This document shows, piece by piece, positions 1-13,073 of a DNA stretch of 13,672 nt. Numbering within the stretch: the stretch's first letter is position 1; the number at the start of each line of letters is the position of its first letter. A program made the translations under genes and the position numbers. The notes under the pieces were generated by a model that did not search any database, had not been told where the DNA came from, and saw only the letters and a list, made by a program, of their open reading frames with translations. The stretch comes from an uncultured Clostridium sp. (GTDB lineage Bacteria; Bacillota; Clostridia; TANB77; CAG-508), in assembly GCA_905213875.1 (NCBI GenBank), contig CAJMJN010000030.1, positions 1 through 13,672 of the forward strand, in the 5' to 3' direction.

Positions 1-130
1 TAGCAACTCAATTATATACGATTTAAATCACTTATTCAATTTTATTTATTTTGTTTCACATCAATTGTAATACAACAGATTTTGTGTAACTTTTGTAATA
101 TCTATGTAATAAATATGTGTAGAAAAGTCA

Positions 131-167
131 AAAAATTACACATATTTTAAAAACATGTGTAATTTTT
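131..167. terminator. Bidirectional intrinsic-terminator-like hairpin just beyond the 3' end of the VanW-family gene
   Basis: AAAAATTACACAT (131-143) and ATGTGTAATTTTT (155-167) form a perfect 13-bp inverted repeat with an 11-nt loop. The A-run is 5' and the T-run 3', so both strands read as stem plus U-tract. It starts 12 nt past the stop of the minus-strand CDS ending at 179. Confidence 0.6.
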
Positions 168-178
168 ATTTTTTCTTT

Positions 179-1978
179 CTATTCAGTTGCTTGTTGTTGC
201 TCTTGAGTCTCTGTTGTATTTGTTGTTTGTGGCGTTGTAGTTGTTTCTGTTGAGGTTACTTCTGTTGTTTTATTATCTTCTGTATTAGTTGTCATTGCTG
301 GTCCTGTGCCTCTTCTAATTATTCTTGTCATTGCATTATATGTGTCTTTAGAAACTAATGTTGTAGAAATTACTTTTCCATTTAATAATTTTGTCATATA
401 TGTTTCAGTTTTTAATCCATTTGTTCCTTTTTGTTCAACTTTTTCTGTTCCTGTTGGTAATGTACTATCATCTATGTATTCTGTTGTAACTGGAATTGTT
501 GCAACTCTTTTTACATCAAATTTGAATGTATATTCTTTATCCTCTTTTATTCCATATATTGTTACTGTTGCAATTCCGTTTTTTGCTGTTGCAACTACTC
601 TTACTGGATATTGTCTTGTATTTTTAAATTTAAAATCTGTTAATCCATATACTACTGTTGCATCCATTCCTGGTTCTACATATGATGTTACAAATTGGTG
701 ATTTTTTCTTTCTACAATTTCTAAGTTTGCATTTAATACTGCATTATATAATGTTGAAGAAATTTGACATATTCCTCCGCCTATTCCATCAACTACTTTT
801 CCAGCCTCATATATTTTCGCATTTTTGTAACCAGCTCCTGCTGTTCTTGCCCCCACTACTTTATTGTATGAGAATGTATCTCCTGATAATACTACTGTTC
901 CATTTATTTTGCTACAAGCTAATTCAAGGTTTGTTGTTCTGTCTTTATCACTTACATCATATCTTGTTGAAAATGTTGCTAACTTATCTGGAAATGCTTC
1001 TGGTCCAATTTTATCTAATGTTACTTTTGGATTTGTAATTGTTAATTTTATTACATATTCATCTTTATCTTCTTGCAATATTTCTTTTGCTTTTTCTAAG
1101 TCAAAACTTATTCCTTTAACTTCAGGATATACCGCAAATGGATTTTTCGTGTAATATGCATCTTGTGGCTCTTTACATATTTCATCATGAATTTTTTCTA
1201 TATCTATTGCTTCTGGTTCTTTATTTACTACTGGTATTTCTAATGTTTGATCTCCATTTGAATCTATATTTTTTAATTCATATTTTATAATTTCTAAAAA
1301 AGCATTTTCATCTATTACAACTCCAACTTTTCCTTTAGATATTGTTAATTCATCATCATCTACTGAGTAACTAGATTCTATTACACCATCTGGTAAATTC
1401 ACATTTATATCATCTATTGTTTGTTTTGCTACATCTTCATTTATTGACATATCTACATCAATATTTCTTTTTCCTATTAATGTAAATAAAATATTGTAAT
1501 TATTTACAAATATATTATCACTTTTTCCTATATTGTCTGCTTCATCAACTGCTTTGTCTATATCATAATTTGTCTCAATTAATTCTGGGCTTATTGTTGA
1601 TTCATATTCATTATGTTTTATTTTTATTTCAGTTGTTTTTTTCTCATTATAAATTGCTTCTAATTTACTTTTAGCCTCTTCTTTAGAGATTCCAGACATG
1701 TCTATTTCTTCGATAAATACGCCTTTAGCTATTTTTTCATTATTAATATTTACTAATGCAAATATTGTAGATATAAATAGTCCTAAAATAATTATTATGC
1801 CTATTATTACTGACATAACAATATATTTTTTCTTACTACTTGTCTCTTTTTTGGTTTCTTTTGACATTTCTTTTATCTCTTCTTCTAATTTTTTTGGATT
1901 TTCTTCCAATTGTTCAAACTTTTTTTCTACTTTTTCTTTTTCCATCTCTTTCGTTTCTTCCTTTTTATTTTCTTTCAT
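179..1978 (-). CDS. Membrane-anchored VanW-family protein with a C-terminal G5-like module and a Thr/Gln-rich tail (YoaR-like architecture)
   Basis: ORF track gives 179-1987. The GTG at 1987 lies inside the SD-like AGGGGTG, so ATG at 1978 (6 nt downstream) is preferred. K/E-rich N-terminus and one TM helix (YIVMSVIIGIIIILGLFISTIFALV). VanW-like core (FSTRYD..., GGGICQISSTLYNA, ERKNHQF, GMDATVVYG). G5-like segment (TTEYIDDSTLPTGTEKVEQKGTNGLKTETY...RIIRRGT). Low-complexity T/Q/E tail. Confidence 0.8.
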   Translation of the reverse strand: MKENKKEETKEMEKEKVEKKFEQLEENPKKLEEEIKEMSKETKKETSSKKKYIVMSVIIGIIIILGLFISTIFALVNINNEKIAKGVFIEEIDMSGISKEEAKSKLEAIYNEKKTTEIKIKHNEYESTISPELIETNYDIDKAVDEADNIGKSDNIFVNNYNILFTLIGKRNIDVDMSINEDVAKQTIDDINVNLPDGVIESSYSVDDDELTISKGKVGVVIDENAFLEIIKYELKNIDSNGDQTLEIPVVNKEPEAIDIEKIHDEICKEPQDAYYTKNPFAVYPEVKGISFDLEKAKEILQEDKDEYVIKLTITNPKVTLDKIGPEAFPDKLATFSTRYDVSDKDRTTNLELACSKINGTVVLSGDTFSYNKVVGARTAGAGYKNAKIYEAGKVVDGIGGGICQISSTLYNAVLNANLEIVERKNHQFVTSYVEPGMDATVVYGLTDFKFKNTRQYPVRVVATAKNGIATVTIYGIKEDKEYTFKFDVKRVATIPVTTEYIDDSTLPTGTEKVEQKGTNGLKTETYMTKLLNGKVISTTLVSKDTYNAMTRIIRRGTGPAMTTNTEDNKTTEVTSTETTTTPQTTNTTETQEQQQATE

Positions 1979-2084
1979 TGTAATCACCCCTACGATATTA
2001 CAATTTTATAATAGCATAAACTTAAATTTTTTACAATATTTTAAAATTTTTATTGTTTTTTTATCACTTTTTTTGAAAAAATAC

Positions 2085-2113
2085 TTGAACAATGTGTAAA
2101 TTAATATTATAAT
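2085..2113 (+). promoter_or_regulatory. Sigma-A-type promoter for the CBM-like gene
   Basis: TTGAAC (2085-2090), 17-nt spacer, TATAAT (2108-2113). SD AAGGAGA follows at 2134-2140 and ATG at 2149. Confidence 0.5.
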
Positions 2114-2148
2114 ATTACTAGCAAAAGATAAATAAGGAGAGAATTTAA

Positions 2149-2619
2149 ATGGAGTTAACAAAAAATATATTCTTCAACACAGATAAATTAGTAGAAAATA
2201 GTAAAGTAAAAATATCATATTTAGGTCAATTATATCAAGATGCTTCTGAAGAAGTATCTATTCATTATGGTTTTGGACAAAATTGGGATAATGTAACTGA
2301 TGTAAAAATGGAAAAAACTGATTTAGGATTTCAAGCTGAAATACAATTATTAGAAGGAGATACTTTTAACTTCTGTTTTAAAAATAGTAATGAAATTTGG
2401 GATAACAATAATGGTCAAAATTATATATTCCCATTAGAAAAAGTTCAAAACGAATTAATTGTTTTAGAAGATGAACCTGTTTCTTTAGGTTCTGCAAAGA
2501 AATTAAGACGTTCTTATTTATGGAGCAAAAAGGTTCGTTTAGCTGTTTATAAAATAATTTCTTACTTACCAAAATTAATTTCTGGAAATTATAAAAGAAA
2601 ATTAAATGATGCCAATTAA
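2149..2619 (+). CDS. Small cytoplasmic carbohydrate-binding-module-like protein (CBM25/CBM53 starch/glycogen-binding type) with a basic amphipathic C-terminal tail
   Basis: Good SD and ATG. The pattern KISY...IHYGFGQNWDNV...F..E...GD.FNFCFKN.NEIWDNNNGQNY resembles starch-binding CBMs (aromatic W/Y and WDNNxGxNY). No signal peptide and no catalytic domain. C-terminus KKLRRSYLWSKKVRLAVYKIISYLPKLISGNYKRK. Confidence 0.45.
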   Translation: MELTKNIFFNTDKLVENSKVKISYLGQLYQDASEEVSIHYGFGQNWDNVTDVKMEKTDLGFQAEIQLLEGDTFNFCFKNSNEIWDNNNGQNYIFPLEKVQNELIVLEDEPVSLGSAKKLRRSYLWSKKVRLAVYKIISYLPKLISGNYKRKLNDAN

Positions 2620-2641
2620 TAATTTATTATATAATATAAAT

Positions 2642-2680
2642 AAAAAACTAATAATATTTAAAACATATTATTAGTTTTTT
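2642..2680. terminator. Bidirectional intrinsic terminator between the convergent CBM-like and SDR genes
   Basis: AAAAAACTAATAATAT (2642-2657) and ATATTATTAGTTTTTT (2665-2680) form a perfect 16-bp inverted repeat with a 7-nt loop. A-run 5' and T-run 3' on both strands. Confidence 0.7.
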
Positions 2681-2693
2681 ATTTTGCTTAAAT

Positions 2694-3434
2694 TTAAGTA
2701 ATTACCCATCCACCATTTATTGAAATAACTTGGCCTGTTGTATAATTGTCATCTATTAACCATTTTACACATTTAGCAATATCTTGTGGATTACCTAATC
2801 TTTCTAGTGGTATTTCTTCTTTTATTTCTTCGATTTCTTTTTCTGTAAATTTACTATTCATTTTTGTATTTATCATTCCTGGTGCAATTGAGTTCACTCT
2901 AATATTAGATGGTCCTAGTTCTTTTGCTAATGCTTTTGTCATTCCATCTAGTCCTGCTTTTGATATAGAGTACAAAACTTCTAATGATCCACCAACTATT
3001 CCCCATATTGATGAAATATTTATTATACATCCTTTTTTATTATGTACCATATTTGGTATTACTTCTTGTGACATTGCAAATGCAGAATATAAATTAGTAT
3101 TTATTAGTTTATCCCAGTCTTCATCTGTTTCATCTGTAAATAATTTGTATTCAGAGATTCCTGCATTATTTATTAATATATCTATTTTTCCATACTTTTC
3201 TATTGTATATTCTACTAATTTTTTTACATCTTCTCTTTTTGACACATCAGCTTTAACTATTTCTAATTTAAAATTTTGTTCTTCTAATTCTTGTTGTAAT
3301 TTTTTGGCTTCTTCCTCTGATTTATTGTAATTTGCAATTACAGTTATTCCAGATTCTGCAAGTTCTTTTGCTACTTCTCTTCCTATTCCTCTTGATGCTC
3401 CTGTTACTATTGCTATTTTTTGTTTATCTTGCAT
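2694..3434 (-). CDS. Classical short-chain dehydrogenase/reductase, FabG-like (3-oxoacyl-ACP reductase family)
   Basis: 246 aa. Rossmann TGxxxGIG (TGASRGIG), NNAG motif, catalytic Ser...YxxxK (SSIWG..., YSISKAG), C-terminal GQVISINGGW. Not in a fab cluster, so the substrate is unassigned. Confidence 0.85.
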   Translation of the reverse strand: MQDKQKIAIVTGASRGIGREVAKELAESGITVIANYNKSEEEAKKLQQELEEQNFKLEIVKADVSKREDVKKLVEYTIEKYGKIDILINNAGISEYKLFTDETDEDWDKLINTNLYSAFAMSQEVIPNMVHNKKGCIINISSIWGIVGGSLEVLYSISKAGLDGMTKALAKELGPSNIRVNSIAPGMINTKMNSKFTEKEIEEIKEEIPLERLGNPQDIAKCVKWLIDDNYTTGQVISINGGWVIT

Positions 3435-3552
3435 ATTTTTTGTATAATATATTTTTTATATATTATATCTCCTTCCTTTTTTATTAATATTTTTTCATTT
3501 AAATAATAGCATATTTTGTTAAATTATTCAATGTGATAAATATTTATGCAAT

Positions 3553-3574
3553 AAAAAAAAGCCCGTAATCAAGC
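3553..3574 (-). terminator. Weak intrinsic terminator candidate after tRNA-Thr
   Basis: Minus strand reads GCTTG-ATTA-CGGGC followed by T8. The 5-bp stem includes two G-U pairs, so it is marginal. Confidence 0.3.
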
Positions 3575-3597
3575 ATAGTGCAAAACTACTGACCTTG

Positions 3598-3674
3598 TGG
3601 AGCCACTTCTCAGATTCGAACTGAGGACCCCCGCATTACAAGTGCGGTGCTCTGGCCAACTGAGCTAAAGTGGC
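3598..3674 (-). tRNA. tRNA-Thr (anticodon UGU), CCA encoded
   Basis: Reverse complement is GCCACTTTAGCTCAGTTGGCCAGAGCACCGCACTTGTAATGCGGGGGTCCTCAGTTCGAATCTGAGAAGTGGCTCCA. It folds by hand into a cloverleaf with anticodon loop CTTGTAA and T-loop TTCGAAT. Confidence 0.95.
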
Positions 3675-3700
3675 CTATTCATTTAATAATAAATAAATTG

Positions 3701-3775
3701 TGGTGACCCCTACGGGAATCGAACCCATGTCTCCGCCGTGAAAGGGCGATGTCTTAACCGCTTGACCAAGGGGCC
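3701..3775 (-). tRNA. tRNA-Glu (anticodon UUC), CCA encoded
   Basis: Reverse complement is GGCCCCTTGGTCAAGCGGTTAAGACATCGCCCTTTCACGGCGGAGACATGGGTTCGATTCCCGTAGGGGTCACCA. Anticodon loop CTTTCAC, T-loop TTCGATT. Confidence 0.95.
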
Positions 3776-3785
3776 TTATAATATA

Positions 3786-3819
3786 AGAAACTAAATAATG
3801 ATTGGATTATTTAGTTTCT
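3786..3819. repeat. Perfect 14-bp stem / 6-nt loop hairpin filling the tRNA-Lys to tRNA-Glu spacer
   Basis: AGAAACTAAATAAT (3786-3799) and ATTATTTAGTTTCT (3806-3819) are exact reverse complements. The spacer between the two tRNAs is only 48 nt (3776-3823). Confidence 0.8.
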
Positions 3820-3823
3820 GCTT

Positions 3824-3899
3824 TGGTGAGCCATCCGCGACTCGAACGCGGGACAACTTGATTAAAAGTCAAGTGCTCTACCACCTGAGCTAATGGCCC
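3824..3899 (-). tRNA. tRNA-Lys (anticodon UUU), CCA encoded
   Basis: Reverse complement is GGGCCATTAGCTCAGGTGGTAGAGCACTTGACTTTTAATCAAGTTGTCCCGCGTTCGAGTCGCGGATGGCTCACCA. Anticodon loop CTTTTAA, T-loop TTCGAGT, 76 nt. Confidence 0.95.
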
Positions 3900-3939
3900 A
3901 AATTTTTGTATCACCACAATGCTTCTATATATTACAATA

Positions 3940-3973
3940 TTTTTTCACAAATGTCAATACATTTGTGAAAAAA
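3940..3973. repeat. 14-bp perfect palindrome between the DUF1858 gene and the tRNA operon (operator-like or RNA hairpin, not canonical terminator polarity)
   Basis: TTTTTTCACAAATG (3940-3953), loop TCAATA, CATTTGTGAAAAAA (3960-3973). The T-run is 5' and the A-run 3' on both strands, the reverse of an intrinsic terminator. Confidence 0.6.
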
Positions 3974-4001
3974 ATTTGTAATTTTTTATACTTTTTTATA
4001 A

Positions 4002-4193
4002 TTAGTCTTCTTTATTTAGCATTTCTAATACTTCTTCAACGTCTATTCCATGCACTGCACAAGCTTCTTCCAATGTTTCCATTTGAGATGCTGGGCATCC
4101 TAAACAATGCATTCCAACTTCTAATAATATATCAGCTTTTTCTGGTGCTTTTTCTAATAATTCACCAATTTGAGTATTTTTATCAAATTTCAT
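4002..4193 (-). CDS. DUF1858-type small redox-disulfide domain protein (hybrid-cluster-protein-associated family)
   Basis: 63 aa. GGAGG lies 6 nt upstream of the ATG. The sequence IGELLEKAPEKADILLEVGMHCLGCPASQMETLEEACAVHGIDVEEVL, with the CxGCP motif, matches my recollection of this family. Confidence 0.7.
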   Translation of the reverse strand: MKFDKNTQIGELLEKAPEKADILLEVGMHCLGCPASQMETLEEACAVHGIDVEEVLEMLNKED

Positions 4194-4339
4194 AGTTTTC
4201 CTCCATTCTATTTTAATAATTAAGATTTATATTTTTAATAAATATTTCACCTATTAAAATTTTATTTGTTAAAGTCCTTTGTATTACTGACTTTTCTCAT
4301 TTGTCGAAATATATTTTAACATATTTTTTTAAAAAAGTA

Positions 4340-4368
4340 TAGACAAATTCCAAAAAATATTGTATTAT
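4340..4368 (+). promoter_or_regulatory. Candidate promoter for the T4SS-like operon
   Basis: TAGACA (4340-4345), 17-nt spacer ending in TG, TATTAT (4363-4368). This would give a leader of about 185 nt before the SD at 4545-4552. Sequence match only. Confidence 0.3.
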
Positions 4369-4560
4369 GTTTCAAAATCGTAAGGCGGTGATATTATTTC
4401 TAAATTAATCGATTTTTATTTTATCACATTTATTATTTATCTTTTTATTACTTTATATTCAATTTATTATTTTTTTGATATCTTTTTATTTCATAACAAA
4501 CAAGGTTCAAAATTACAAATAAAAAAGAAATTTTTTTAAATTTTAAAGGAGGTATATTTT

Positions 4561-6318
4561 ATTTTTTTACCTAATCGTAAAAGTCTGTTTTTTTCCATTT
4601 TATTTACCATTATTTTTAGCATCATTATTTTTAAAGTTTTTTATCCCATTTATGTTGCTGACGAAATTATTATTCCCTACGGAATTCATCCATTTGATAT
4701 TTGTTCTAAAAACTCCAATTTATGGAATAACATTAAAATTATTTATATTTTTATATCAGTGTTTTCAAATTTTATAATCAGTAATTTTATTTATAATCGA
4801 TTTTTTATTAATCTTTTATCCATTTTTAATAAGTTTACACATAAAAAATCTAATTTTAAAAAAAATTCTAATCTATATTTCAAAAATAATATTCACTCTA
4901 AAAAATCAATTAAAACATCTGGCCATTTGCAATTAAAAATTGGTCAAGTTGAAGGTTCAAAAGAAACTATATATATTCCTGAAAGTGGTTTATATCAAAA
5001 TTTTTTAATCACAGGTACTATAGGTTCTGGAAAAACTTCTAGTGCAATGTATCCTTTTACTCGCCAATTATTGGAATTTAATTGTTCTAATTCAAACAAA
5101 AAAATAGGTATGCTTATTTTAGATGTTAAAGGCAATTACTATAATCAAGTAAAAGAATATGCACAAAAATTTAATTTGGATAAAGATTTAATTGTTTTAG
5201 AATTAGGTTCAAGTGTATTTTACAATCCATTGCATAAGCCTCATTTAAAAGCTACTGTACTAGCTAATAGGTTAAAAACTATATTACTTCTCTTTTCTGA
5301 AAATAATTCAGAATCTTATTGGTTAGATAAGGCTGAGGAAGCTTTATGTGCAGCTATAAAATTGTGTAGACTTTATAATAAAGGATATGTTACATTTGCT
5401 GAAATTCACAAACTTATTACAGAGCCTTCGTATTATAAGGAAAAAATTAAAATTTTGAAAGATTTGTTTATTTTAAGTAAATTTAATCAAAAACAAATTT
5501 ATGAATTAAATGCTAGTTTGAATTTTTTTGAAAATGATTTTAATAATTTGGATTCTAGAACTAAAGGAATTTTAATCTCTGAAATAACTAGAATTACTAG
5601 TACTTTTGTGTCTGACTATGATGTTAAAAATACTTTTTGTTCTGAAAAAAGCAAATTGACTTTTACTGGATTTGATGAAGTTTTATCTAAGGGAAAAATT
5701 GTTGTTTTAAATATGAATATTTTTGAATACTCACTACTTTCTAAAATCATTGCAACATATCTAAAATTAGATTTTCAAACAGAAGTTATGACTCGTCTTT
5801 CTAAAAAAATAAATAATACATCTGCTTTTATTTGTGATGAATATGACAAGTTTGCAACAAAAACAGATAGTGAATTTTTTTCTTTAAGCAGAGAAGCTAA
5901 ATGTATTAATATTGTTAGTACTCAAAGTTATTCGTCTTTAAAAAGTACATTAAAAGATGATGCTACTGTTAAAGTTATTGTTCAAAATCTTATTAATAAA
6001 ATTTGGTTTAGAACAGATGATATTTTCACTATTGAGGAAGCTCAAAAACAACTTGGTAAAGAAGATAAAGAAAAAACTTCTAAAAGTATTTCTGAAAGTG
6101 CTAAAGAAACAAATTTTAATTATATAACAAATACTTTAAATTCTAGAAATTCAAACATTTCTGAAACTTATAGCACTTATTTGCACAATGATTTTATTTA
6201 TGATTCCAACTTTTTTACAAGGGAGCTTCAAACATTCACTGCCCTTACGTTTTTATCTGATGGTAATAAAATTTTAATACCACAGAAATTAAATATGTTT
6301 CCATATTTTAAAGAATAA
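4561..6318 (+). CDS. Type IV secretion coupling protein-like ATPase (VirD4/TraG/TraD family) with two predicted N-terminal TM helices; start codon uncertain (ATT 4561 after a strong SD, first canonical start GTG 4759)
   Basis: Walker A FLITGTIGSGKTSS; LILDVKGNYY and FYNPL motifs; Walker B-like AFICDEYDKF; IVSTQSYSSLKS; KIWFRTDD. The reading frame is stop-free from 4540. AAAGGAGG sits at 4545-4552 and ATT at 4561, 8 nt later. The upstream 66 codons encode hydrophobic helices (SLFFSILFTIIFSIIIFKVF; IIYIFISVFSNFIISNFIY), as expected for a T4CP membrane anchor. Confidence 0.65.
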   Translation: MFLPNRKSLFFSILFTIIFSIIIFKVFYPIYVADEIIIPYGIHPFDICSKNSNLWNNIKIIYIFISVFSNFIISNFIYNRFFINLLSIFNKFTHKKSNFKKNSNLYFKNNIHSKKSIKTSGHLQLKIGQVEGSKETIYIPESGLYQNFLITGTIGSGKTSSAMYPFTRQLLEFNCSNSNKKIGMLILDVKGNYYNQVKEYAQKFNLDKDLIVLELGSSVFYNPLHKPHLKATVLANRLKTILLLFSENNSESYWLDKAEEALCAAIKLCRLYNKGYVTFAEIHKLITEPSYYKEKIKILKDLFILSKFNQKQIYELNASLNFFENDFNNLDSRTKGILISEITRITSTFVSDYDVKNTFCSEKSKLTFTGFDEVLSKGKIVVLNMNIFEYSLLSKIIATYLKLDFQTEVMTRLSKKINNTSAFICDEYDKFATKTDSEFFSLSREAKCINIVSTQSYSSLKSTLKDDATVKVIVQNLINKIWFRTDDIFTIEEAQKQLGKEDKEKTSKSISESAKETNFNYITNTLNSRNSNISETYSTYLHNDFIYDSNFFTRELQTFTALTFLSDGNKILIPQKLNMFPYFKE

Positions 6319-6327
6319 CTGGTTTAT

Positions 6328-6347
6328 GGGTTTTAGCCTTAAAACCC
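6328..6347 (+). other. Short GC-containing hairpin just after the coupling-protein stop (partial terminator or processing site)
   Basis: GGGTTTTA-gcct-TAAAACCC, 8-bp perfect stem. It is followed by AAATAAATTTT rather than a clean T-run. Confidence 0.4.
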
Positions 6348-6365
6348 AAATAAATTTTAAGGTTT

Positions 6366-6394
6366 TTAGGATATTATAACTTTTACGCTATAAT
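6366..6394 (+). promoter_or_regulatory. Candidate internal promoter ahead of the VirB2-like gene
   Basis: TTAGGA (6366-6371), 17-nt spacer, TATAAT (6389-6394). Confidence 0.4.
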
Positions 6395-6426
6395 CTCTTT
6401 AAATAGATGAAAGGAATGGTTTTTAT

Positions 6427-6765
6427 ATGAATTTCAAAAAAAAATTTTTTTATTTAATTTTTACTACTATTTTCTCATTACTATTATTATTTTCTTTTTC
6501 AGTTTTAAGCTATGGTTGGGGAGATCCTGAAATTGTAACTAAAATTAATTCTGCTTTTGAAAGTATAGAAAATTGGCTTATAAAAATCTCAACTCCTGCT
6601 GCAGCAGTTGCTGTTGGTAGTGGTGTTTTTATGAGAAAATTTAGTTTTGGTGATGAAGAAAAAATACGAATGGGCAAGAAAATTATTAAAGGGTCTTTAT
6701 TTTCTTATGCTTTTATACTTGCTATTAATTTAATATTATCTGCTATAAAATCTTTAATTACATAA
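6427..6765 (+). CDS. TrbC/VirB2-like small membrane protein (signal peptide plus two-helix hairpin)
   Basis: 112 aa. N-terminal signal-like segment MNFKKKFFYLIFTTIFSLLLLFSFSVLSYG. Then a helix ISTPAAAVAVGSGVFM, a short basic loop, and a helix GSLFSYAFILAINLILSAI. This is the topology of T4SS pilin-like subunits. Call made from architecture and context only. Confidence 0.45.
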   Translation: MNFKKKFFYLIFTTIFSLLLLFSFSVLSYGWGDPEIVTKINSAFESIENWLIKISTPAAAVAVGSGVFMRKFSFGDEEKIRMGKKIIKGSLFSYAFILAINLILSAIKSLIT

Positions 6766-6775
6766 GGAGGAAATT

Positions 6776-7654
6776 TTGGAAAGCCAAACTAATATTACAC
6801 AAACTATTATAAATACTATAAATAGTATTTTCGAGATGCTTTTTTCTTCTATTGATAATAATTTATATTCTGTTTTAGATAAAATTACTTTTATAAATTC
6901 AGATATTTTAACTGATAAAAATTTTGAAAATATTTTTGGTACTTCTACTTCTAATGGTATTTTATTAATCGCAAATTCTTTGTTATTAGGTCTTATTTTA
7001 TATTATGGTTTCAAATATTTAATGTCACATATCACTTACCAGCGTGTTGATTCCCCTTTTAGCTTTATTATAAAAATTATTATTTTTGGTATTTGTATGA
7101 ATTTTTCGTTTTTTATTTTACAATTTTTATTAGATTTAAATTCAAATATTTCTTTGGCAATTAGAAGTTTAGGAAAAAATCTATTTGGAAGTGAATTAAG
7201 TTTTTCAGAATTAATCAATAAAATAAATACTAATATTTCTATTGATACTAGTTCCTTAAATATTTTTTCTGTTGATGGTTTAATAAAAAGTACATTAAGT
7301 CTTTCTTTACTTAACCTTGTTTTTTCATATTCTTTTCGTTATATTATGGTTAAAGTTTTTATTTTGCTTGCTCCTTTTGCCTTTCTTTCCCTAAGTTTAG
7401 ACTCAACCTCTTGGTTCTTTAAATCATGGCTTAAAAATTTATTTTCGCTTTTATTTATTCAAATTATAGTTTCTTTAGTTTTACTAATTTTATTTTCTTT
7501 GGATTTTTCATCTTCAAATTTATTTAATAAATTTGTTTATGTTGGTGGAATTTATAGTTTGATAAAAGCTAATTCATTTGTACGTGAATTTATCGGTGGA
7601 GTTTCCACAAATATTTCACAATCTGTGAAAAGTTTTGCTAATTTTAAAAAATAA
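6776..7654 (+). CDS. Polytopic membrane protein, VirB6/TrbL-like
   Basis: TTG start 5 nt after AAGGAGG (6764-6770), which overlaps the upstream stop, suggesting translational coupling. 292 aa with about 5-6 hydrophobic helices (GILLIANSLLLGLILYYGF, FSFIIKIIIFGICMNFSFFILQFLL, LSLSLLNLVFSYSFRYIMVKVFILLAPFAFLSL, LFSLLFIQIIVSLVLLILFSL). Its position after a VirB2-like gene matches Firmicutes ICE operons. Confidence 0.45.
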   Translation: MESQTNITQTIINTINSIFEMLFSSIDNNLYSVLDKITFINSDILTDKNFENIFGTSTSNGILLIANSLLLGLILYYGFKYLMSHITYQRVDSPFSFIIKIIIFGICMNFSFFILQFLLDLNSNISLAIRSLGKNLFGSELSFSELINKINTNISIDTSSLNIFSVDGLIKSTLSLSLLNLVFSYSFRYIMVKVFILLAPFAFLSLSLDSTSWFFKSWLKNLFSLLFIQIIVSLVLLILFSLDFSSSNLFNKFVYVGGIYSLIKANSFVREFIGGVSTNISQSVKSFANFKK

Positions 7655-7816
7655 TTTTATTTAAAATTTATTTTTAATTATTTATTATAATTTATTTAAG
7701 CTTATATTTTACCGCATTTTCTATTTTTAGTGTGTTTTCCTCTTTTTTTCTATTTTTTTTGAATTTATACTATTTTTTTCTAATTTTTTCATTTTTTTAT
7801 AATATTTTTAAGGAGG

Positions 7817-7926
7817 TATATTATTTAAATTTTTATATTATTAATTATTAATTATTATTTATTTTTTATTTTTTATTTTTTATTTTTTATTTATTTTTTA
7901 ATTATTAATTTAAATATTTAAATATT
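7817..7926. repeat. 110-nt tract with no G or C, containing a 7-bp periodic repeat (7841-7896; four perfect TTTTTTA units 7862-7889) flanked by ATTTAAAT palindromes
   Basis: Direct reading gives TTAATTA x2, TTATTTA, TTTTTTA x4, TTTATTT. ATTTAAAT occurs at 7823-7830 and as ATTTAAATATTTAAAT at 7908-7923. The tract is preceded by an orphan SD TAAGGAGG (7809-7816). Confidence 0.85.
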
Positions 7927-7934
7927 GGTTTATT

Positions 7935-8216
7935 ATGAAATTTATTTTTCCACAGAACTATAGATTCAAAAATAAAATACTAGGTATTATTGATTATCAA
8001 ACAGCTTTTGTAAATTTAGTTTGGTATATTATCGTTTTAGTTATTGTTAACTTGATTTTTAATTCTATTAATTTAAAGGTTATGTTTTTTATAGCTTTTT
8101 GTTTTCCATTATTGCTTTTTAGTTTTTCTGGCTTTCATGGCGAAAGTATTATTTCTGTAATTAAATATTTATTTAAATTTATATTTAAACAAAAATTATA
8201 TTTTTTTAGTAAATAA
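7935..8216 (+). CDS. PrgI/VirB3-like small membrane protein
   Basis: 93 aa. The N-terminal FPQNYRFKNKILGIIDYQTAF, then a two-helix hairpin, then GFHGESIISVIKYLFKFIFKQKLYFF, parallels the PrgI-family layout (short polar N-terminus, TM hairpin, C-terminal amphipathic tail). No convincing SD precedes the ATG. Confidence 0.45.
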   Translation: MKFIFPQNYRFKNKILGIIDYQTAFVNLVWYIIVLVIVNLIFNSINLKVMFFIAFCFPLLLFSFSGFHGESIISVIKYLFKFIFKQKLYFFSK

Positions 8217-8262
8217 CACTAAAATTTTATTTTATTTTTCAATATTATTTTAAATAAAAATT

Positions 8263-8295
8263 ATATGAAATTTATACGAAATTTATATGATTTGA
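8263..8295 (+). repeat. Three tandem 11-bp repeats directly upstream of the dnaB/dnaI promoter
   Basis: ATATGAAATTT (8263-8273), ATACGAAATTT (8274-8284), ATATGATTTGA (8285-8295). The period is one helical turn and the array ends 2 nt before the -35 element. Confidence 0.6.
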
Positions 8296-8297
8296 CC

Positions 8298-8326
8298 TTG
8301 AATTTTTTGTCTAAAAAAGATATAAT
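8298..8326 (+). promoter_or_regulatory. Sigma-A-type promoter of the replication-gene pair
   Basis: TTGAAT (8298-8303), 17-nt spacer, TATAAT (8321-8326). SD AGGAGAG at 8351-8357, ATG at 8365. Confidence 0.55.
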
Positions 8327-8364
8327 TTGTTTTACAAAATATTTTTAATTAGGAGAGATTTACA

Positions 8365-9342
8365 ATGAAATTAGAACAAAATGAAAAACCACTTTTGTTT
8401 TCTGAGACTACTATTCCAGATATATTTTTTTCAGAACATTTATCAGAATTACCTGGTGATTATCTTAAAATATATTTATATTTAATCTTTTTGTCTAAAT
8501 ATAATAAAGATGCAAAATTAACAGACTTGTCAAAGAAATTGAACATTCCTTTAAAGTCTATTAATGATGGAATAAAATTTTTAGAAGAACATGGTTTACT
8601 TACTAAAAAATCTACCGGTTATGTTATTGTAGATTTACAAGAAGTTACATTACACAATTTATACTCACCTAATTTAAGTTTGTCTAAAGAAAAAATTGAA
8701 CAAACTGCCAAAAATAAAGCTAGATCTAAAGTTATTGAACATATTAATAATACTTATTTTCAAGGAATTATGGGTCCTTCTTGGTATAATGATATTGACC
8801 TTTGGTTTAGAAAATATTCTTTTGATGAACAAGTTATGATAGCTTTATTTGATTATTGTTATAAGAAAAGTGCTTTACATAGAAATTATGTACAAGTTGT
8901 TGCTGAGGCTTGGGCCTCTAACAAAATACAAACTTATACTGACTTAGATAATTATTATGCTAAACAAGAATCATTAAATAAAATGAAAAAGTCTATTGCT
9001 AAAAAGCTTGGTAAATACAATGGATTAACACAATATGAAGAAGCTTATATTGAGAACTGGGTTCTTAATTATGGCTATGATATGAGTATTATTGAAATTG
9101 CTTTAAAAAGAACTGTTTTTAAACAAAATCCAACTTTTGAATATATAAATAAAATAATTACAGATTGGCATGAACGTCAACTAAAAACTCCTGCTGAAAT
9201 CACAGCATTTTTAGAACAAAGAAAAAAACAAGAAAAAGATACAAAAGAGTTAAAATCACAAGTGCATAAAGCAAATTACGAGCAACGTCAATATTCTAAT
9301 TTAGATTTTCTTTATGCAAATAATACTAATAAGGAGGACTAG
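8365..9342 (+). CDS. Replication initiation/membrane attachment protein of the Firmicutes DnaB/DnaD family (winged-helix N-domain plus two DnaD-like C-terminal repeats); not the replicative helicase
   Basis: N-terminal wHTH-like segment LPGDYLKIYLYLIFLS...LSKKLNIPLKSINDGIKFLEEHGLL. Two DnaB_2/DnaD-C-like repeats: WFRKYSFDEQVMIALFDYCYKK...YVQVVAEAWASNKIQT and IENWVLNYGYDMSIIEIALKRTV...YINKIITDWHERQLKT. The stop TAG abuts the ATG of the next gene. Confidence 0.75.
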   Translation: MKLEQNEKPLLFSETTIPDIFFSEHLSELPGDYLKIYLYLIFLSKYNKDAKLTDLSKKLNIPLKSINDGIKFLEEHGLLTKKSTGYVIVDLQEVTLHNLYSPNLSLSKEKIEQTAKNKARSKVIEHINNTYFQGIMGPSWYNDIDLWFRKYSFDEQVMIALFDYCYKKSALHRNYVQVVAEAWASNKIQTYTDLDNYYAKQESLNKMKKSIAKKLGKYNGLTQYEEAYIENWVLNYGYDMSIIEIALKRTVFKQNPTFEYINKIITDWHERQLKTPAEITAFLEQRKKQEKDTKELKSQVHKANYEQRQYSNLDFLYANNTNKED

Positions 9343-10351
9343 ATGGCTGACGAAATTTTAAATTCTTTATTAAAAGAATATTCACAAAAAAAATTGCAAG
9401 CTGAACTAGATTTAGAAAAAAGAAAAGAAGAATTATATAATTCAATTCCTCGATTACGACAAATTGAAGATGATTTAAATAATTTTGCTATTTCTACTGC
9501 AAAAAATATATTAAAAAATGGTAGTTCTCCTGAAGAAGAACAAGAATTAAAAAATAAAGTAGAATTATTAAAAGCTGAAAAGGCACGAATATTAGCAGAA
9601 TTAAATCTACCTGATAATTATTTACAACCATTTTATAGTTGCTCTATTTGTAAAGATACTGGATATGTTTCAGATGGCGGTTATAATATGGTTATGTGTA
9701 GTTGTTTAAAACAAAAATTATTAGATTATTCTTTTAATAAATCTAATATGTCTAATTTAAACAAAGAAAATTTTTCTACTTTTAATCCTAATATGTTTTC
9801 AGATGAAGTTGATATTGCAAAATTTCATTTTAATATATCTCCTAGAACTAACATATTAAATATAAAAAATAAATGTGTTCAATTTGTAGAAAATTTTGAA
9901 GATTCAGCTCAAAAGAATTTGCTTTTTACAGGCAATACTGGTTTACGGTAAGACTTTTATGTCAAACTGTATTGCTAATGAATTGTTAAAAAAAGGAAAA
10001 ACTGTGCTTTATCAAACATCTCCTGTGTTGCTTGAAAGCGTAATAGATTACAAGATGAGTAAAAATAAATCTTCGCTTGATAACATATATAATTCTGTTT
10101 TAAATTGTGACTTATTAATAATAGATGACCTTGGAACAGAAAGTTTAAATAGTATGAAGTTGAGCGAACTATTTACAATTTTAAATACTAGAATTTTAAA
10201 TTTAAATAATAAAATTACTAAAACAATTATATCTACTAATTTGGATCTTAATGATATTTTTAGAATTTATGAAGAACGTATTGGTTCTAGAATTATTGGT
10301 TATTATGATATATATAGATTTTTTGGAGAAGATTTACGTTTTAAAAGATGA
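9343..10351 (+). pseudogene. DnaI/DnaC-type AAA+ helicase loader, interrupted by a 1-nt insertion inside the Walker A motif (ORFs 9343-9951 and 9896-10351)
   Basis: N-terminal zinc-ribbon-like CSICKDTGYV...MCSC. Sequence GGC AAT ACT GGT TTA CGG TAA (9931-9951). Deleting C9946 gives GNTGLGKTFMSNCIANELL (Walker A GxxGxGKT), continuing into LLIIDDLG (Walker B) and the rest of a loader-like C-terminus. The restored ORF is 335 aa. Confidence 0.8.
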
Positions 10352-10502
10352 TTTTGGGGACGGAGCAAAAAATCATCTTTTAAAATTTTTAATTATATAC
10401 AATAGAAAAAAGCTTTTAATTATAAATAAAAAGCTTTTTTCTATTTTTTTATATAATATGCAAGTTGTTAAATATGATTTTTTGCTCCGTCCCCAAAATC
10501 AT
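10348..10502. repeat. 155-bp unit bounded by perfect 29-bp inverted repeats (MITE-like element or giant 3'-UTR hairpin) filling the dnaI/gyrA convergent spacer
   Basis: ATGATTTTGGGGACGGAGCAAAAAATCAT (10348-10376) is the exact reverse complement of 10474-10502. The left arm contains the TGA stop of the loader gene (10349-10351). The right arm ends 4 nt before the gyrA stop (10507-10509). Confidence 0.85.
10403..10450. terminator. Intrinsic terminator nested in the centre of the 29-bp inverted-repeat unit
   Basis: TAGAAAAAAGCTTTT (10403-10417) and AAAAGCTTTTTTCTA (10429-10443) form a perfect 15-bp stem with an 11-nt loop, followed by T7 (10444-10450). The U-rich stem end also gives some activity in the gyrA direction. 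Confidence 0.7.
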
Positions 10503-10506
10503 AATT

Positions 10507-12954
10507 TTATTCTTTTATATCTGGTGTTAAAGTTTCCATACTTACAACTTTTCCGCCATCACTTGTTCTCATTAATGTAACACCTTGTGTTGATCTTCCT
10601 AAAATGCTAACATCTTTTACACTAATTCTTATTATTGTTCCTGAATCTGTAATAAGCATAACGTCATCATCTTCTGTTGCAATTCTTACTCCTACTAGTT
10701 TTCCAGTTTTAGGTGTAATTTTATAAGTTATTACTCCTCTTCCACCTCTTTTTTGTACTCTATATTCGTCAAGTTCAGTTCTCTTTCCAAATCCATTTTC
10801 AGTAATTGCAAGTAGTGTTGCTTTTCCTCCTGCTATAACTGATTCCATACCAATTACTTCGTCATCATCATCTAATCTTATTCCTATAACACCTTGTGCA
10901 ACTCTACCAATTGGGCGTACATCTTTTTCATCAAATGTAATACATAAACCATTTCTTGTAACTAATACAACGTTGTCTTCACCATCTGTTAAACGTACTC
11001 CAATTAATTCGTCTTCATCTTTTAAAGTAATACCTTGTAATCCGTTTTTTCTAGTTGTGTTATATTCTGTTAATGCTGTTTTCTTAATTAATCCATTTTT
11101 TGTTGCCATTAATAGATATTTTCCTTCAGCAAAGTTTTGAATTGGTATTACTGCAGATACTTTTTCTCCAGCTTCTAAGTTCAATAAGTTAACAATTGCT
11201 GTTCCTTTTGCTGTTCTACCAGCTTCTGGAATTTCGTATCCTCTTAATCTATACAATTTACCTTTGTTTGTAAAGAATAAAATTGTATCATGTGTTGATG
11301 CTGTAAATATTTGTTTAACAAAATCATTTTCGCGTGTTGCAATTCCTGTTATTCCTTTTCCACCACGTCTTTGGCTTCTATATGTATCTATTGGCATTCT
11401 TTTAATATATCCAAAGTGTGTTAATGCTACAACACATTGTTCTTCTTTTATTAAATCTTCTACATCTATTTCGCCTTCTGCAGCTACTATTTTAGTTTTT
11501 CTTTCATCTCCGAATTTGTCTTTTATTTCAAGTAATTCTTCTTTGATTATATCAAAAACTAATTTTTCACTTGCTAATATTGCTCTTAAATGTTCGATTA
11601 ATTCCATTAATTGTTTGTATTCTTCTTCAATTTTTTCACGTTGCAATCCTGACAATGTTTTTAATCTCATATCTAGTATTGCTTGTGCTTGAATTTCAGA
11701 AAGTCCAAATCTTTCCATTAATCTTTCTCTTGCATCGTCATATGAAGAACGAATTATTTGAATAACTTCGTCTATATAGTCAATAGCAATTCTTAAACCT
11801 TCTAATATGTGAGCTCTTGCTAATGCTTTGTCTAATTCGAATTTTGTTCTTCTTAAAATAACGTCTTTTCTGTGATCTATAAAGCAATTTAAACATTCTC
11901 TTAATGTTAAGATTTTAGGTTCTCCATTAACTAATGCAAGCATTATAATACCAAATGTTGTTTGCATTTGTGTGTGTTTAAACAATTGGTTTAATACAAC
12001 TTGTGGTCTTGCATCTCTTTTTAATTCAATTACAACCCTTACTCTGTCTTTTCTATCTGATTCATCTCTACATTCAGAAATTCCTTCGATTTTCTTTTCT
12101 TTAGATAAATCTGATATTGCTTTTATTAAGTTTGCTTTATTTACTTGATATGGTAATGAAGAAACAATAATTCTTTGTCTATTTCCACTCATTTCTTCTA
12201 TTTCTGTTTCTGCTCTTAGTGTAATTTTTCCTCTACCTGTTGTGTATGCTTGCTTTATTCCTTCTCTTCCTAGAATAAGTCCTTCTGTTGGGAAATCTGG
12301 TCCTTTAATTACACTCATTAGATCTTCGTCTGTTACTTCATCTTCATCAATTATTTTAATTATTCCATCAATTACTTCATTTAAGTTGTGTGGTGGTATA
12401 TTTGTTGCCATACCTACAGCTATACCTGATGAACCATTTATTAAAAGTGTTGGTATTCTTGTTGGTAATACTGTTGGTTCTTGTAGTCTATCATCATAGT
12501 TTGGCATAAAGTTTACTGTGTTTTTTTCTATGTCTGATAACATATATGCAGATATTTTTGCCATTCTTGCTTCTGTGTACCTCATTGCGGCTGCTCCGTC
12601 ACCATCAACTGAACCAAAGTTGCCATGGCCATCAATTAACATATATCTCATTGAGAAATCTTGAGCCATTCTAACCATTGCATCATAAACAGAGCTATCA
12701 CCATGTGGATGATATCTACCTAAAACAGAACCTACTGTATTAGCACATTTTCTGTATGGTTTATCTGCTGTAATTCCATCTTCATGCATTGCATATAATA
12801 TTCTTCTATGTACTGGTTTTAAACCATCTCTTGCATCTGGAAGCGCACGTGAGACAATAACACTCATGGCATAATCTATGTATGCTGTTCTCATTTCTTT
12901 TTCAATGTCTCTTTCGATTATTTTTCCGTCATTTCTTTCTGGTCTTTCTTCCAT
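10507..12954 (-). CDS. gyrA: DNA gyrase subunit A
   Basis: 815 aa. N-terminal [33 protein letters not shown], active-site [11 protein letters not shown], GyrA-box QRRGGKG in the C-terminal beta-pinwheel (absent from ParC). QRDR reads [12 protein letters not shown]; the residues aligning with E. coli S83 and D87 are Ser (12694-12696) and Asp (12682-12684), the susceptible-type pattern. Confidence 0.97.
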
Positions 12955-12990
12955 TGTTTCTCCCTCTTTTCCTTGTTTTTCTACATTTGT

Positions 12991-13019
12991 ATTATACTAA
13001 AACTAGGGAAAATATGCAA
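12991..13019 (-). promoter_or_regulatory. Sigma-A-type promoter dedicated to gyrA
   Basis: On the minus strand: TTGCAT (13019-13014), 17-nt spacer, TATAAT (12996-12991). An SD GAGGGAG lies upstream of the ATG at 12954. Confidence 0.55.
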
Positions 13020-13073
13020 GTAAAATTGGCTAAAAACTTAGGGATTTTGTACTATTATTCAATTATTTTATTT

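Follow-up and report, generated by a model that had tools for sequence, protein, structure and literature searches.

A probable domesticated type IV secretion system, split into two halves near the replication origin of uncultured gut Clostridia

Introduction

What are parts of a type IV secretion system (T4SS) doing among the housekeeping genes of an uncultured Clostridium? The window (the whole stretch of 13,672 nt that we analyzed) contains four same-strand ORFs that resemble T4SS components (Table 1), and no VirB4, relaxase, integrase, or hydrolase is found among the genes at positions 1–13,672. A first-pass annotation, made from these letters alone, had noted that absence and described an orphan module of four genes. 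It offered three readings: a deletion remnant of an integrated conjugative element (ICE), a module that is completed by genes elsewhere, or a minimal translocon that works without VirB4. Here we ask which of these readings fits, and what the system might do.

Results

The genes of the block resemble conjugation machinery

The window has a GC content of 15–25% throughout, so the extreme AT bias noted earlier is real. The block is flanked on the left by genes for tRNA-Thr/Glu/Lys and a DUF1858 protein and on the right by DnaD, a DnaC-like gene, and gyrA, as the first-pass annotation described. A search with Rfam found the three tRNAs and nothing else. We considered an alternative genetic code and dropped it because table 11 already gives intact ORFs.

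Table 1. Features of the five-gene block and of the nearby VirB4 gene. Positions are in the window unless another locus is named.
Feature	Position	Strand	Evidence
Promoter-like site TAGACA-17-TATTAT with TG-extended -10; heads the operon (putative function)	4340..4368	+	Consensus scan
orf0, 47 aa, single TM helix, unannotated	4396..4539	+	tblastn, dN/dS, conservation
Type IV coupling protein (T4CP; VirD4/TrwB-like), 585 aa	4561..6318	+	Pfam, AF2/Foldseek
Terminator-like hairpin between T4CP and pilin genes, specific to source species	6327..6348	+	Scan
VirB2-like T4SS pilin, 112 aa	6427..6765	+	PF18895, family HMM
Putative VirB6/TrbL-like polytopic membrane protein, 292 aa, TTG start	6776..7654	+	Sub-threshold TrbL, family HMM, synteny
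AT-rich repeat spacer, ~15% GC, VirB6-like to VirB3-like	7655..7934	.	GC profile; overlapping tandem arrays
Putative VirB3/PrgI-like protein (orf4), 93 aa, two TM helices	7935..8216	+	Family HMM, weak Pfam
VirB4 ATPase ORF	L186, 8164–10026		Pfam, Walker A

The first of the four proteins is a coupling protein (T4CP). It scores above the gathering thresholds of Pfam's TrwB_AAD_bind (34.6 bits versus a cutoff of 20.5) and TraG-D_C (32.9 bits versus 22), and it has two N-terminal TM helices, a Walker A motif (GTIGSGKTSS), and a Walker B motif (FICDEYD). Its AlphaFold (AF2) model has a pLDDT of 91.1, and the best Foldseek matches are Cag-beta (8DOL, E = 6.6e-13), TrwB (1E9S), and DotL (6SZ9). HerA and VirB4 rank lower, and we dropped the idea that this gene encodes an FtsK/HerA-type ATPase because T4CPs are placed higher. 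A comparison of the T4CP profile to PDB sequences gave nothing significant, and the PADLOC and PHROGs libraries gave nothing relevant. Among 72,556 plasmids, tblastn found only 38 weak matches to the T4CP (20–28% identity), most of them orphan genes of plasmids that are not mobilisable, and nothing was learned from the contexts H1, H3, and H55. Neither the pilin nor the VirB6-like protein had any tblastn match in these plasmids.

The pilin scores just above the cutoff for T4SS_pilin (PF18895; 27.7 versus 26.6 bits). Its N-terminus resembles a signal peptide, and after it come two hydrophobic helices that flank a charged loop. An HMM built from its family matches PF18895 proteins of two conjugative elements, L180 (2e-12) and L182 (9e-13), which we return to below.

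The assignments of the VirB6-like and VirB3-like proteins rest on sub-threshold Pfam matches plus synteny, and we regard both as putative. The VirB6-like protein reaches 18.1 bits for TrbL/VirB6 (cutoff 25.9), and TrbL is the top Pfam family for 14 of 30 members of its family (best E = 4.8e-4). The family HMM matches a 315-aa protein of L180 (1e-13), which is itself a weak TrbL match, and a 336-aa protein of L182 (3e-7). A homologue search with this protein returned only sequences at least 93% identical, of no use as an alignment. Its AlphaFold model, made from a shallow alignment, has a pLDDT of 48.7 and is too poor for use. The VirB3-like protein of the window has no Pfam match of its own. 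Its relatives have weak matches (E = 0.02–0.3), with PrgI on top in 5 of 29 (best E = 0.023) and VirB3 in 1. The N-terminal motif MKFIFPQNY.FKNK..G..DY is conserved, and the family HMM matches small proteins located directly 5' of VirB4 in L180 (6e-14) and L182 (9e-10); these homologues have no PrgI match either. Taken together, Pfam, AlphaFold/Foldseek, and the family HMMs that match conjugative elements support the T4SS-like nature of the four genes.

The spacer between the VirB6-like and VirB3-like genes is specific to the source species, and the corresponding gap in relatives is about 20–30 nt. Its length varies among strains: the offset of orf4 differs by up to 200 nt among the same-species contigs L001–L005.

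In the neighboring helicase-loader gene, we noticed a conserved one-base insertion within the Walker A motif. The insertion has the appearance of a programmed +1 frameshift, hitherto undescribed, in an essential gene of replication, and a literature search turned up no helicase loader with reported frameshifting.

A fifth gene and non-AUG starts

The first-pass annotation missed a fifth conserved gene, orf0, which encodes a small membrane protein and lies 5' of the T4CP gene. In 79 of 80 species loci, tblastn places orf0 5' of the T4CP gene (55–89% identity), and it is intact in all 143 of 143 loci. Its sequence pattern is IS.LI.FYFITFIIYLFITLYS.YTFFDI.LFHNKQGSKL.IKKK.F, and family-library searches (PADLOC and PHROGs) gave no match. 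When the DUF1858-orf0 intergenic region is aligned across 45 species, both the -35 and the -10 box of the promoter-like site prove to be conserved, as does a downstream Shine-Dalgarno sequence (AAGGCGG). The start codon of orf0 is probably ATT (at 4393 or 4396), and its stop codon is directly 5' of the Shine-Dalgarno sequence of the T4CP.

The full-length T4CP also lacks an ATG, GTG, or TTG start, and the first canonical start is a GTG at 4759. Translation most likely begins at the ATT at 4561, which is 3' of a Shine-Dalgarno sequence (AAGGAGG, 4546–4552). At this position, most species have ATT, ATA, or CTG after GGAGG, and residues 2–66 are conserved (dN/dS of 0.29). Together with the VirB4 ATPase described below, orf0 and the T4CP have non-AUG starts, which suggests that translation of these genes may be deliberately low. 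We rejected the hairpin after the T4CP gene as a regulatory feature because it is not conserved: the intergenic region in relatives is 0–47 nt and is mostly hairpin-free.

VirB4 lies on the other side of gyrA

The block is not an orphan: in the same species, a VirB4-family ATPase is encoded about 9.7 kb past the right edge of the window and about 15 kb from the block. We reached this region via the last gene of the window (13427–13672), and L183, L184, and L186 contain the window's own genes plus the VirB4 ATPase. As seen from the block, the VirB4 cluster is beyond dnaD-dnaC-gyrA, wedged between gyrB and gyrA. It comprises a VirB4 N-domain ORF, the ATPase ORF, and a gene for a TadZ/ParA-like protein. 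The order along the chromosome, in the origin region, is dnaA-dnaN-recF-gyrB-VirB4...gyrA-dnaC-dnaD-VirB3-VirB6-VirB2-T4CP. The ATPase matches P-loop_TraG (72.4 bits), AAA_10 (51.2 bits), and DUF87 (28.7 bits), and its Walker A motif (GTSGAGKS) is intact.

VirB4 is 73–92% identical in 23 related loci, which are those of the relatives whose fetched flank extended far enough, and it is always beyond gyrA. A distant member of the lineage (L138) has VirB4 divided in the same way, between an N-domain ORF and an ATPase ORF. These results bear out the reading that the module is completed by genes elsewhere, and they illustrate how a window-limited scan can take a split system for an orphan one.

The block is inherited vertically and is under purifying selection

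We fetched 160 loci, out of 215 matching stretches in a collection of species-representative genomes, and the order and location of the five-gene block are kept in them. The arrangement DUF1858, orf0-T4CP-pilin-B6-orf4, DnaD-DnaC, gyrA is found in L011–L090 and also across a broader low-GC gut clade (L094–L172), and the block is intact where its neighbors change (L099 and L138). Thus, the block is conserved at this locus in related genomes, and the long chromosomal residence suggested by the first-pass annotation is supported. At least 90% of loci carry the genes intact. The dN/dS ratios within the block are 0.15 for orf0, 0.19 for both the pilin and the VirB6-like gene, and 0.28 for the VirB3-like gene; the range for the block (0.15–0.28) is within that of the flanking housekeeping genes (0.07–0.36). 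By sequence comparison, then, this appears to be a split T4SS that is inherited vertically beside the replication origin in a large uncultured lineage of low-GC gut Clostridia.

These data refute the idea of an ICE remnant, because the genes are mostly intact, with dN/dS ratios like those of the neighboring core genes, and because the order and the locus are constant. Some features do look like decay: there is no relaxase, hydrolase, or integrase, the T4CP has no canonical start codon, and VirB4 is in two pieces. However, the non-canonical starts and the split of VirB4 are themselves conserved, and we consider a decaying element to be highly improbable.

Homologous genes are joined in conjugative elements

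Homologues of the T4CP, the pilin, the VirB6-like and VirB3-like proteins, and VirB4 occur together in L180 and L182, which are metagenomic elements of the MPF_FATA type (the prototypes are pCF10 and CTn2). The outgroup T4CPs are 39–44% identical, and the VirB4 proteins of conjugative elements are 39–43% identical, to those of the chromosomal system. In L180 and L182, the T4CP is accompanied by VirB4, an M23 peptidase, and Tad genes, and in L180 only by a relaxase and MobC. Further outgroup T4CPs are accompanied by Fic, ToxN, topoisomerase, or an integrase. The first-pass annotation had given an order of T4CP, small membrane protein, VirB6, PrgI, and VirB4 for clostridial ICEs; we found it in one outgroup element, L182, except that the hydrolase gene is inserted there (T4CP-pilin-VirB6-(M23)-VirB3-VirB4). 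In both L180 and L182, the VirB3-like gene is directly upstream of VirB4 and is apparently translationally coupled to it.

This arrangement bears on whether the five-gene block could work alone as a VirB4-independent translocon, with the VirB4 cluster serving another purpose. The two clusters are on opposite strands with replication genes between them, and VirB4 is accompanied by the TadZ/ParA-like protein, as might be expected if they were separate. But conservation in the lineage extends to both VirB4 and the block, their VirB3-like and VirB4 homologues are adjacent in two elements, and we know of no T4SS that lacks VirB4. We therefore consider this reading very unlikely. From the co-conservation and shared ancestry of the two halves, we infer that they are functionally linked.

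In contrast to the MPF_FATA elements, the chromosomal system has no accompanying relaxase/MobC, M23 hydrolase, primase, toxin-antitoxin genes, or integrase; it is at a fixed locus, is inherited vertically, and is in two clusters around gyrA. Specifically, no relaxase or MobC is among the called genes from dnaA to a P-type ATPase (~37 kb). There is no integrase in the ~37 kb around the system, and the location, with its housekeeping flanks, is the same in all 160 loci. The M23 peptidase, which is present in the outgroup elements L175, L179, L180, L181, and L182, is absent from both chromosomal clusters. No VirB8-like protein was found by Pfam within the ~37 kb, where p241 and p379 have no family assignment.

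Given that VirB4 is nearby, that the block is conserved, and that the homologues are joined in conjugative elements, we think it likely that the five-gene operon (4340–8216) is half of a domesticated chromosomal T4SS that descends from a Firmicutes-type conjugative element. The other half, across dnaD-dnaC-gyrA, would be the VirB4 N-domain ORF, the VirB4 ATPase, and the TadZ/ParA-like protein. On this view, the system has lost its relaxase and M23 cell-wall hydrolase, along with any integrase, at least locally.

Might the system still conjugate? A core-genome T4SS could serve for the transfer of DNA, that of the chromosome included, if a relaxase and an oriT were encoded in another part of the genome or on mobilisable elements. 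All of the T4SS parts derive from conjugative elements with a relaxase (as in L180), the T4CP retains its TrwB-like all-alpha and TraG-D_C regions, and genes for T4CPs and relaxases are often located away from those for mating-pair formation (PMC12102498). Against this, the ~37 kb around the system lack a relaxase, MobC, an integrase, and a hydrolase, and a fixed position across many species is unlike a mobile element. We view conjugation as improbable, though less so than a system without VirB4.

Discussion

How would such a machine work? By analogy to known T4SSs, a membrane-anchored hexamer of the T4CP would pick a substrate in the cytoplasm, and VirB4, docked via the VirB3-like protein, would drive assembly and translocation. 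The VirB6-like protein would form the conduit through the membrane, and the processed pilin would carry it through the wall. We favor a role in the relaxase-independent and contact-dependent export of macromolecules (protein or DNA) to neighboring cells, with both the direction and the substrate being guesses. Export is favored because of the leading position of a T4CP in the operon: such proteins occur in systems that export and are not known from ComB, which takes up DNA.

Core-genome T4SSs that lack a relaxase have been described in a few pathogens and, more recently, in Patescibacteria. ComB of Helicobacter pylori resembles the system described here in being chromosomal, relaxase-less, and in two gene clusters, but it is from a diderm and has no T4CP. 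The Rickettsiales vir homolog (rvh) system is also part of the core genome and is conserved across its lineage, with genes scattered in several chromosomal islands. Unlike the clostridial system, it is a diderm MPF_T system with VirB7–11 and duplicated VirB6, and it delivers effectors to eukaryotic hosts. The rvh system is also mentioned in the study of Patescibacteria (PMC12102498).

The closest analogue appears to be the chromosomal T4SS of Patescibacteria/CPR. Both are monoderm-type systems on the core chromosome, proximal to the origin and without an associated relaxase (none was seen in our ~37 kb); both have VirB4 and VirB2-like PF18895 pilin components, together with VirB3/PrgI-like and VirB6 components that are putative in the clostridial system; and both are thought to have been co-opted from Firmicutes-type conjugation machinery (PMC12102498). 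There are differences as well. The host here is a member of the Clostridia, in a different phylum. The T4CP is with the channel genes and VirB4 is apart, whereas the T4CPs of Patescibacteria are mostly far from virB4: just 148 of 5,713 T4CP genes are near it (Microb Genom 2025, PMC12102498). Also, VirB4 is in two ORFs here and there is a single pilin gene, while the pilins of Patescibacteria form an array. The Patescibacteria system is essential for epibiotic growth, and its T4CP proved dispensable in the single species examined for this (PMC12102498).

This likeness raises the alternative that the domesticated T4SS is an import machine, as has been proposed for Patescibacteria, which would take up DNA or other macromolecules from neighbors or the environment and so feed a reduced-genome organism. 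Besides the shared layout near dnaA/dnaN, the genomes of this lineage are very AT-rich, and the longest contig that we saw is 1.05 Mb. On the other hand, the known uptake system does without a T4CP; in the clostridial operon, the gene for this protein stands at the head and is subject to purifying selection. The placement of most T4CP genes in Patescibacteria, and the dispensability of the T4CP in one species, also argue against reading the clostridial system in this way, and import by the Patescibacteria system is itself a hypothesis (PMC12102498). Overall, we consider import to be unlikely, if somewhat less so than conjugation.

Our preferred reading remains a domesticated T4SS, most likely one that exports. 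If the system is indeed domesticated, then a conjugative ancestor of the same kind would have been co-opted a second time, in a widespread lineage of gut Clostridia for which our literature search found no report of a T4SS. It would also offer a tractable comparison for learning what such machines transport. More speculatively, these abundant and very AT-rich bacteria might depend on an origin-embedded T4SS, kept at low dosage by conserved non-AUG starts, for an obligate cell-to-cell lifestyle that parallels Patescibacteria. Such cells might acquire material from other gut bacteria as epibionts or parasites, or might exchange chromosomal DNA species-wide; we think that such dependence is doubtful. 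In any case, a domesticated T4SS would suggest that these uncultured bacteria physically interact with other cells.

Identification of the T4SS-type proteins

The window is about 24% GC, and its ORFs read cleanly in table 11 (see table below). The first-pass annotation described a T4SS-like module of four ORFs. This module is real: two of the identities are firm, and the other two come from weak sequence signals. Two Pfam families of T4CPs match ORF 1 above their gathering thresholds (TrwB_AAD_bind, 34.6 bits; TraG-D_C, 32.9 bits), and ORF 2 is marginally over the threshold of T4SS_pilin (PF18895; 27.7 bits versus a cutoff of 26.6). ORF 3 is under the Pfam threshold for TrbL/VirB6 (18.1 bits versus a cutoff of 25.9). 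For ORF 4 (orf4), Pfam gave no matches; synteny and weak profile matches tentatively suggest that it is VirB3-like.

When we compared the T4CP to plasmid sequences, we found 38 weak matches and nothing better, and a profile of the T4CP had no matches among PDB sequences. Of 1.84 billion representatives searched, 2,229 clusters belong to the family at E up to 0.001. An AlphaFold model, with 61 diverse sequences as input, had a pLDDT of 91.1. The best matches of this model in the PDB were Cag-beta (8DOL, E 6.6e-13), TrwB (1E9S/1GL7), and DotL (6SZ9), and both HerA and VirB4 ranked below the coupling proteins. The product of ORF 1 is a divergent yet genuine T4CP. Another relative of the T4CP (46% identity) is found on a GC-rich metagenome contig from a high-GC organism (L177, 4710-6914), where it stands alone amid housekeeping genes (glutamine synthetase, CorA, and HD). 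Here too, the ATPase family may have a chromosomal copy that is not mobile.

Features of the window and of the VirB4 cluster. Coordinates are those of the window unless a locus is named (L186, same species as the window; L138, distant lineage member). dN/dS values are by Nei-Gojobori; dS is near saturation, so the values are comparative.
Feature	Position	Strand	dN/dS
VanW/G5 protein	leftmost in window	minus	0.36
CBM53 protein	between VanW/G5 and SDR genes
YmfI-like SDR	right of CBM53 gene	minus	0.22
tRNA-Thr, tRNA-Glu, tRNA-Lys	3598-3899	minus
DUF1858 gene	4002-4193	minus
orf0	4396-4539		0.15
T4CP (ORF 1), canonical-start form	4759-6318	plus	0.22
Pilin (ORF 2)	6427-6765	plus	0.19
VirB6-like (ORF 3)	6776-7654	plus	0.19
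orf4 (ORF 4, candidate VirB3-like)	7935-8216	plus	0.28
DnaD	8365-9342		0.13
DnaC/DnaI-like loader, two frames	9343-9951 + 9896-10351
gyrA	10507-12954	minus	0.07
Last gene of window	13427-13672
TraC-like VirB4 N-domain ORF	L186 7421-8020, outside window
VirB4 ATPase ORF	L186 8164-10026, outside window
Split VirB4 ORFs of distant member	L138 857-1366 + 1402-3150

The block is conserved and under purifying selection

Identical proteins are found, with identical synteny, on many gut-metagenome contigs, including contigs of 1.05 Mb and 352 kb. In a collection of species-representative genomes, relatives of the T4CP are encoded in 215 stretches, and we kept the 80 with 68-81% identity. These come from MAGs that bear the labels uncultured Clostridia or Clostridium sp. 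(e.g., CAG:343 and 28_17) and were obtained from the guts of humans, rabbits, chickens, and mice. Essentially all 80 have the same order: the DUF1858 gene, orf0-T4CP-pilin-B6-orf4, DnaD-DnaC, and gyrA. A metagenome scan seeded by distant T4CPs gave 75 further low-GC loci with the same block. The five genes remain together where the neighbors change: the block is followed by an ABC transporter in one relative (L099) and by HD, tadA, DAPDH, and dnaX in the distant lineage member L138, with no T4SS gene downstream in either.

Every block gene has an intact copy in at least 90% of the loci, and synteny is kept; dN/dS is 0.15-0.28, which is to be read in comparison with the neighboring genes. Because of this pattern of conservation and selection, we ruled out a decaying ICE remnant left by deletion, which was one of the readings in the first-pass annotation.

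Homologs in conjugative elements

More distant T4CPs from outgroup loci (39-44% identity to the window's T4CP) sit in mobile-element contexts. In the conjugative element L180, the order is MobC and relaxase, a 106-aa protein, an 861-aa VirB4 (TraC-like/P-loop_TraG), a PHD-like antitoxin, a PF18895 pilin, T4CP, an M23 peptidase, a 315-aa membrane protein, and ParA and Tad pilus genes. In the element L182, it is primase and a toxin-antitoxin pair, T4CP, pilin, a 336-aa protein, M23, a 104-aa protein, an 852-aa VirB4, and Tad genes. The remaining outgroup loci have Fic, ToxN, topoisomerase, or integrase.

Family HMMs for the pilin, the VirB6-like protein, and orf4 matched proteins in both elements. 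The orf4 HMM matched the small protein directly upstream of VirB4 (6e-14 in L180 and 9e-10 in L182). L182 has the gene order that had been given in the first-pass annotation, with VirB4 next after the VirB3-like gene. The VirB6-like HMM matched the 315-aa protein of L180 (1e-13) and the 336-aa protein of L182 (3e-7). The pilin HMM matched the PF18895 protein of L180 (2e-12) and a pilin-like ORF of L182 (9e-13), which at 25.1 bits is slightly under the PF18895 cutoff of 26.6. Because of the contexts of the outgroup T4CPs and these HMM matches, all four window proteins are assigned homologs within true conjugative T4SS clusters.

A split VirB4 is encoded beyond gyrA

We searched every fetched locus with the VirB4s of L180 and L182 (tblastn). 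In many relatives, minus-strand matches lie past gyrA, with 40-45% identity across about 590 aa. Contigs of the window's own species that extend through the window's last gene carry the window genes and, at the far end, a 541-aa gene that matches AAA_10, P-loop_TraG, and DUF87. Extending further gave the order dnaA, dnaN, recF, gyrB, a TraC-like 199-aa ORF, the VirB4 ATPase ORF, a 379-aa TadZ/ParA-like protein, three short ORFs, a 241-aa helical protein, an HTH gene, a diversity-generating retroelement, two small ORFs, and gyrA.

The VirB4 ATPase ORF matches P-loop_TraG (72.4 bits), AAA_10 (51.2 bits), and DUF87 (28.7 bits), and its Walker A motif (GTSGAGKS) is intact. With the L180 VirB4 it shares 43% identity across residues 250-853, and the ORF upstream, in a different frame, matches residues 20-201. 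The same split into two ORFs is found in L138, where the second ORF starts with ATG; in the window's species, the VirB4 ATPase ORF has an apparent ATT start behind GGAGG. The two-ORF VirB4 recalls the TrsD plus VirB4 pairs of pGO1 and Patescibacteria (PMC12102498). The VirB4 ATPase is encoded about 9.7-11.6 kb past the window's right edge and is 73-92% identical in 23 relatives, which are those whose fetched flank reached that far. The module is thus not an orphan that lacks VirB4, as had been proposed: a conserved VirB4 is encoded about 15 kb from orf4 in the same species' chromosome.

Some other features of this region deserve mention. The three short ORFs (71, 59, and 84 aa; L186 11561-13394) each repeat part of the C-terminal ~70 residues of the TadZ/ParA-like protein, and similar fragments are found in several relatives. 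The retroelement between gyrA and the VirB4 cluster (L186 16001-19409, or 17429-20831 in L001, which is also from the window's species) lies just past the window's right end and includes a reverse transcriptase, bAvd, a MutS_I-like 167-aa protein, and a putative target of 440-442 aa. Only some of the related species carry it. In L186, a 352-kb contig, gyrB is called in four fragments (322, 43, 58, and 158 aa; 4553-6314), which may be assembly frameshifts and not biology.

Operon anatomy and non-AUG starts

The reading frame of the T4CP is open upstream as far as a stop at 4537. The extension encodes two TM helices, which relatives share, and has no ATG, GTG, or TTG anywhere. A perfect Shine-Dalgarno sequence (AAGGAGG) is at 4546-4552, and in most species ATT, ATA, or CTG follows at the expected spacing. 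The N-terminal 65 codons have a dN/dS of 0.29. Because of these features, the T4CP is taken as a protein of 585 aa, which most likely starts at the ATT at 4561. Immediately upstream is orf0, an unannotated 47-aa ORF with a single TM helix, which opens with an Ile codon behind a Shine-Dalgarno sequence and was found in 79 of the 80 species loci (55-89% identity). A promoter-like site (TAGACA-17-TATTAT, 4340-4368) and the Shine-Dalgarno sequence of orf0 are conserved in 45 species.

Overall, three start sites lack ATG, GTG, or TTG: those of orf0 (4393-4398), the T4CP (4561-4563), and the VirB4 ATPase ORF (L186, about 8161). All three have ATT, ATA, or CTG behind a strong Shine-Dalgarno sequence, and this is kept across species. 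The pilin, orf4, DnaD, and gyrA use ATG. The non-AUG starts of T4SS genes suggest deliberately weak translation initiation.

The spacer between the VirB6-like gene and orf4 (7655-7934; 280 nt, ~15% GC) consists of overlapping AT-rich tandem repeats. It is found in the window's species only, is missing from relatives, and differs in length between strains by up to about 200 nt. Within it, the Shine-Dalgarno context of the T4CP is duplicated (AAGGAGGTATATT, 7811-7823), with a stop codon directly after. Between tRNA-Lys and the DUF1858 gene, a perfect 15-bp AT-rich hairpin followed by a T-run (3940-3973) could be a bidirectional terminator.

A putative programmed frameshift in the helicase loader

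The gene for the DnaC/DnaI-like loader has one extra C within its Walker A motif (GGT TTA CGG TAA GAC; junction at about 9940-9951). The zero frame encodes GNTGLR and then a stop; if the C is skipped, GNTGL-GKTF is restored and the +1 frame runs on as GKTFMS. Most of the roughly 65 species keep the Leu-CGG junction, some of them as variants that have no stop after CGG, and unsplit relatives without the extra C have GGT TTG GGA AAA. CGG occurs just once among 3,636 codons in the window, exactly at this junction. Both halves are under purifying selection (dN/dS of 0.29 and 0.12). This essential replication gene probably undergoes programmed +1 ribosomal frameshifting at a hungry codon. A literature search found no report of programmed frameshifting in a helicase loader.

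A putative domesticated T4SS

The five genes of the block make up a conserved operon that encodes T4SS-type parts, the nearby VirB4 on the same chromosome is conserved, and both halves have homologs in one kind of conjugative element. In the ~37 kb from dnaA to a P-type ATPase, we found no relaxase, integrase, M23 hydrolase, or VirB8-like Pfam match. Among described systems, the chromosomal T4SS of Patescibacteria (PMC12102498) comes closest; it is likewise origin-proximal and relaxase-less and has VirB2-like PF18895 pilins. In contrast to that system, the host here belongs to a different phylum, the T4CP is integral to the cluster, VirB4 is split, and the two clusters are laid out around gyrA.

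Import, as hypothesized for Patescibacteria, is a possible alternative, and so is conjugation with a relaxase that is encoded elsewhere. Given that the T4CP heads the operon, we favor export that depends on it. The block and the VirB4 cluster probably form one machine, domesticated from a conjugative element, whose present cargo would be something besides a relaxase-led plasmid strand.
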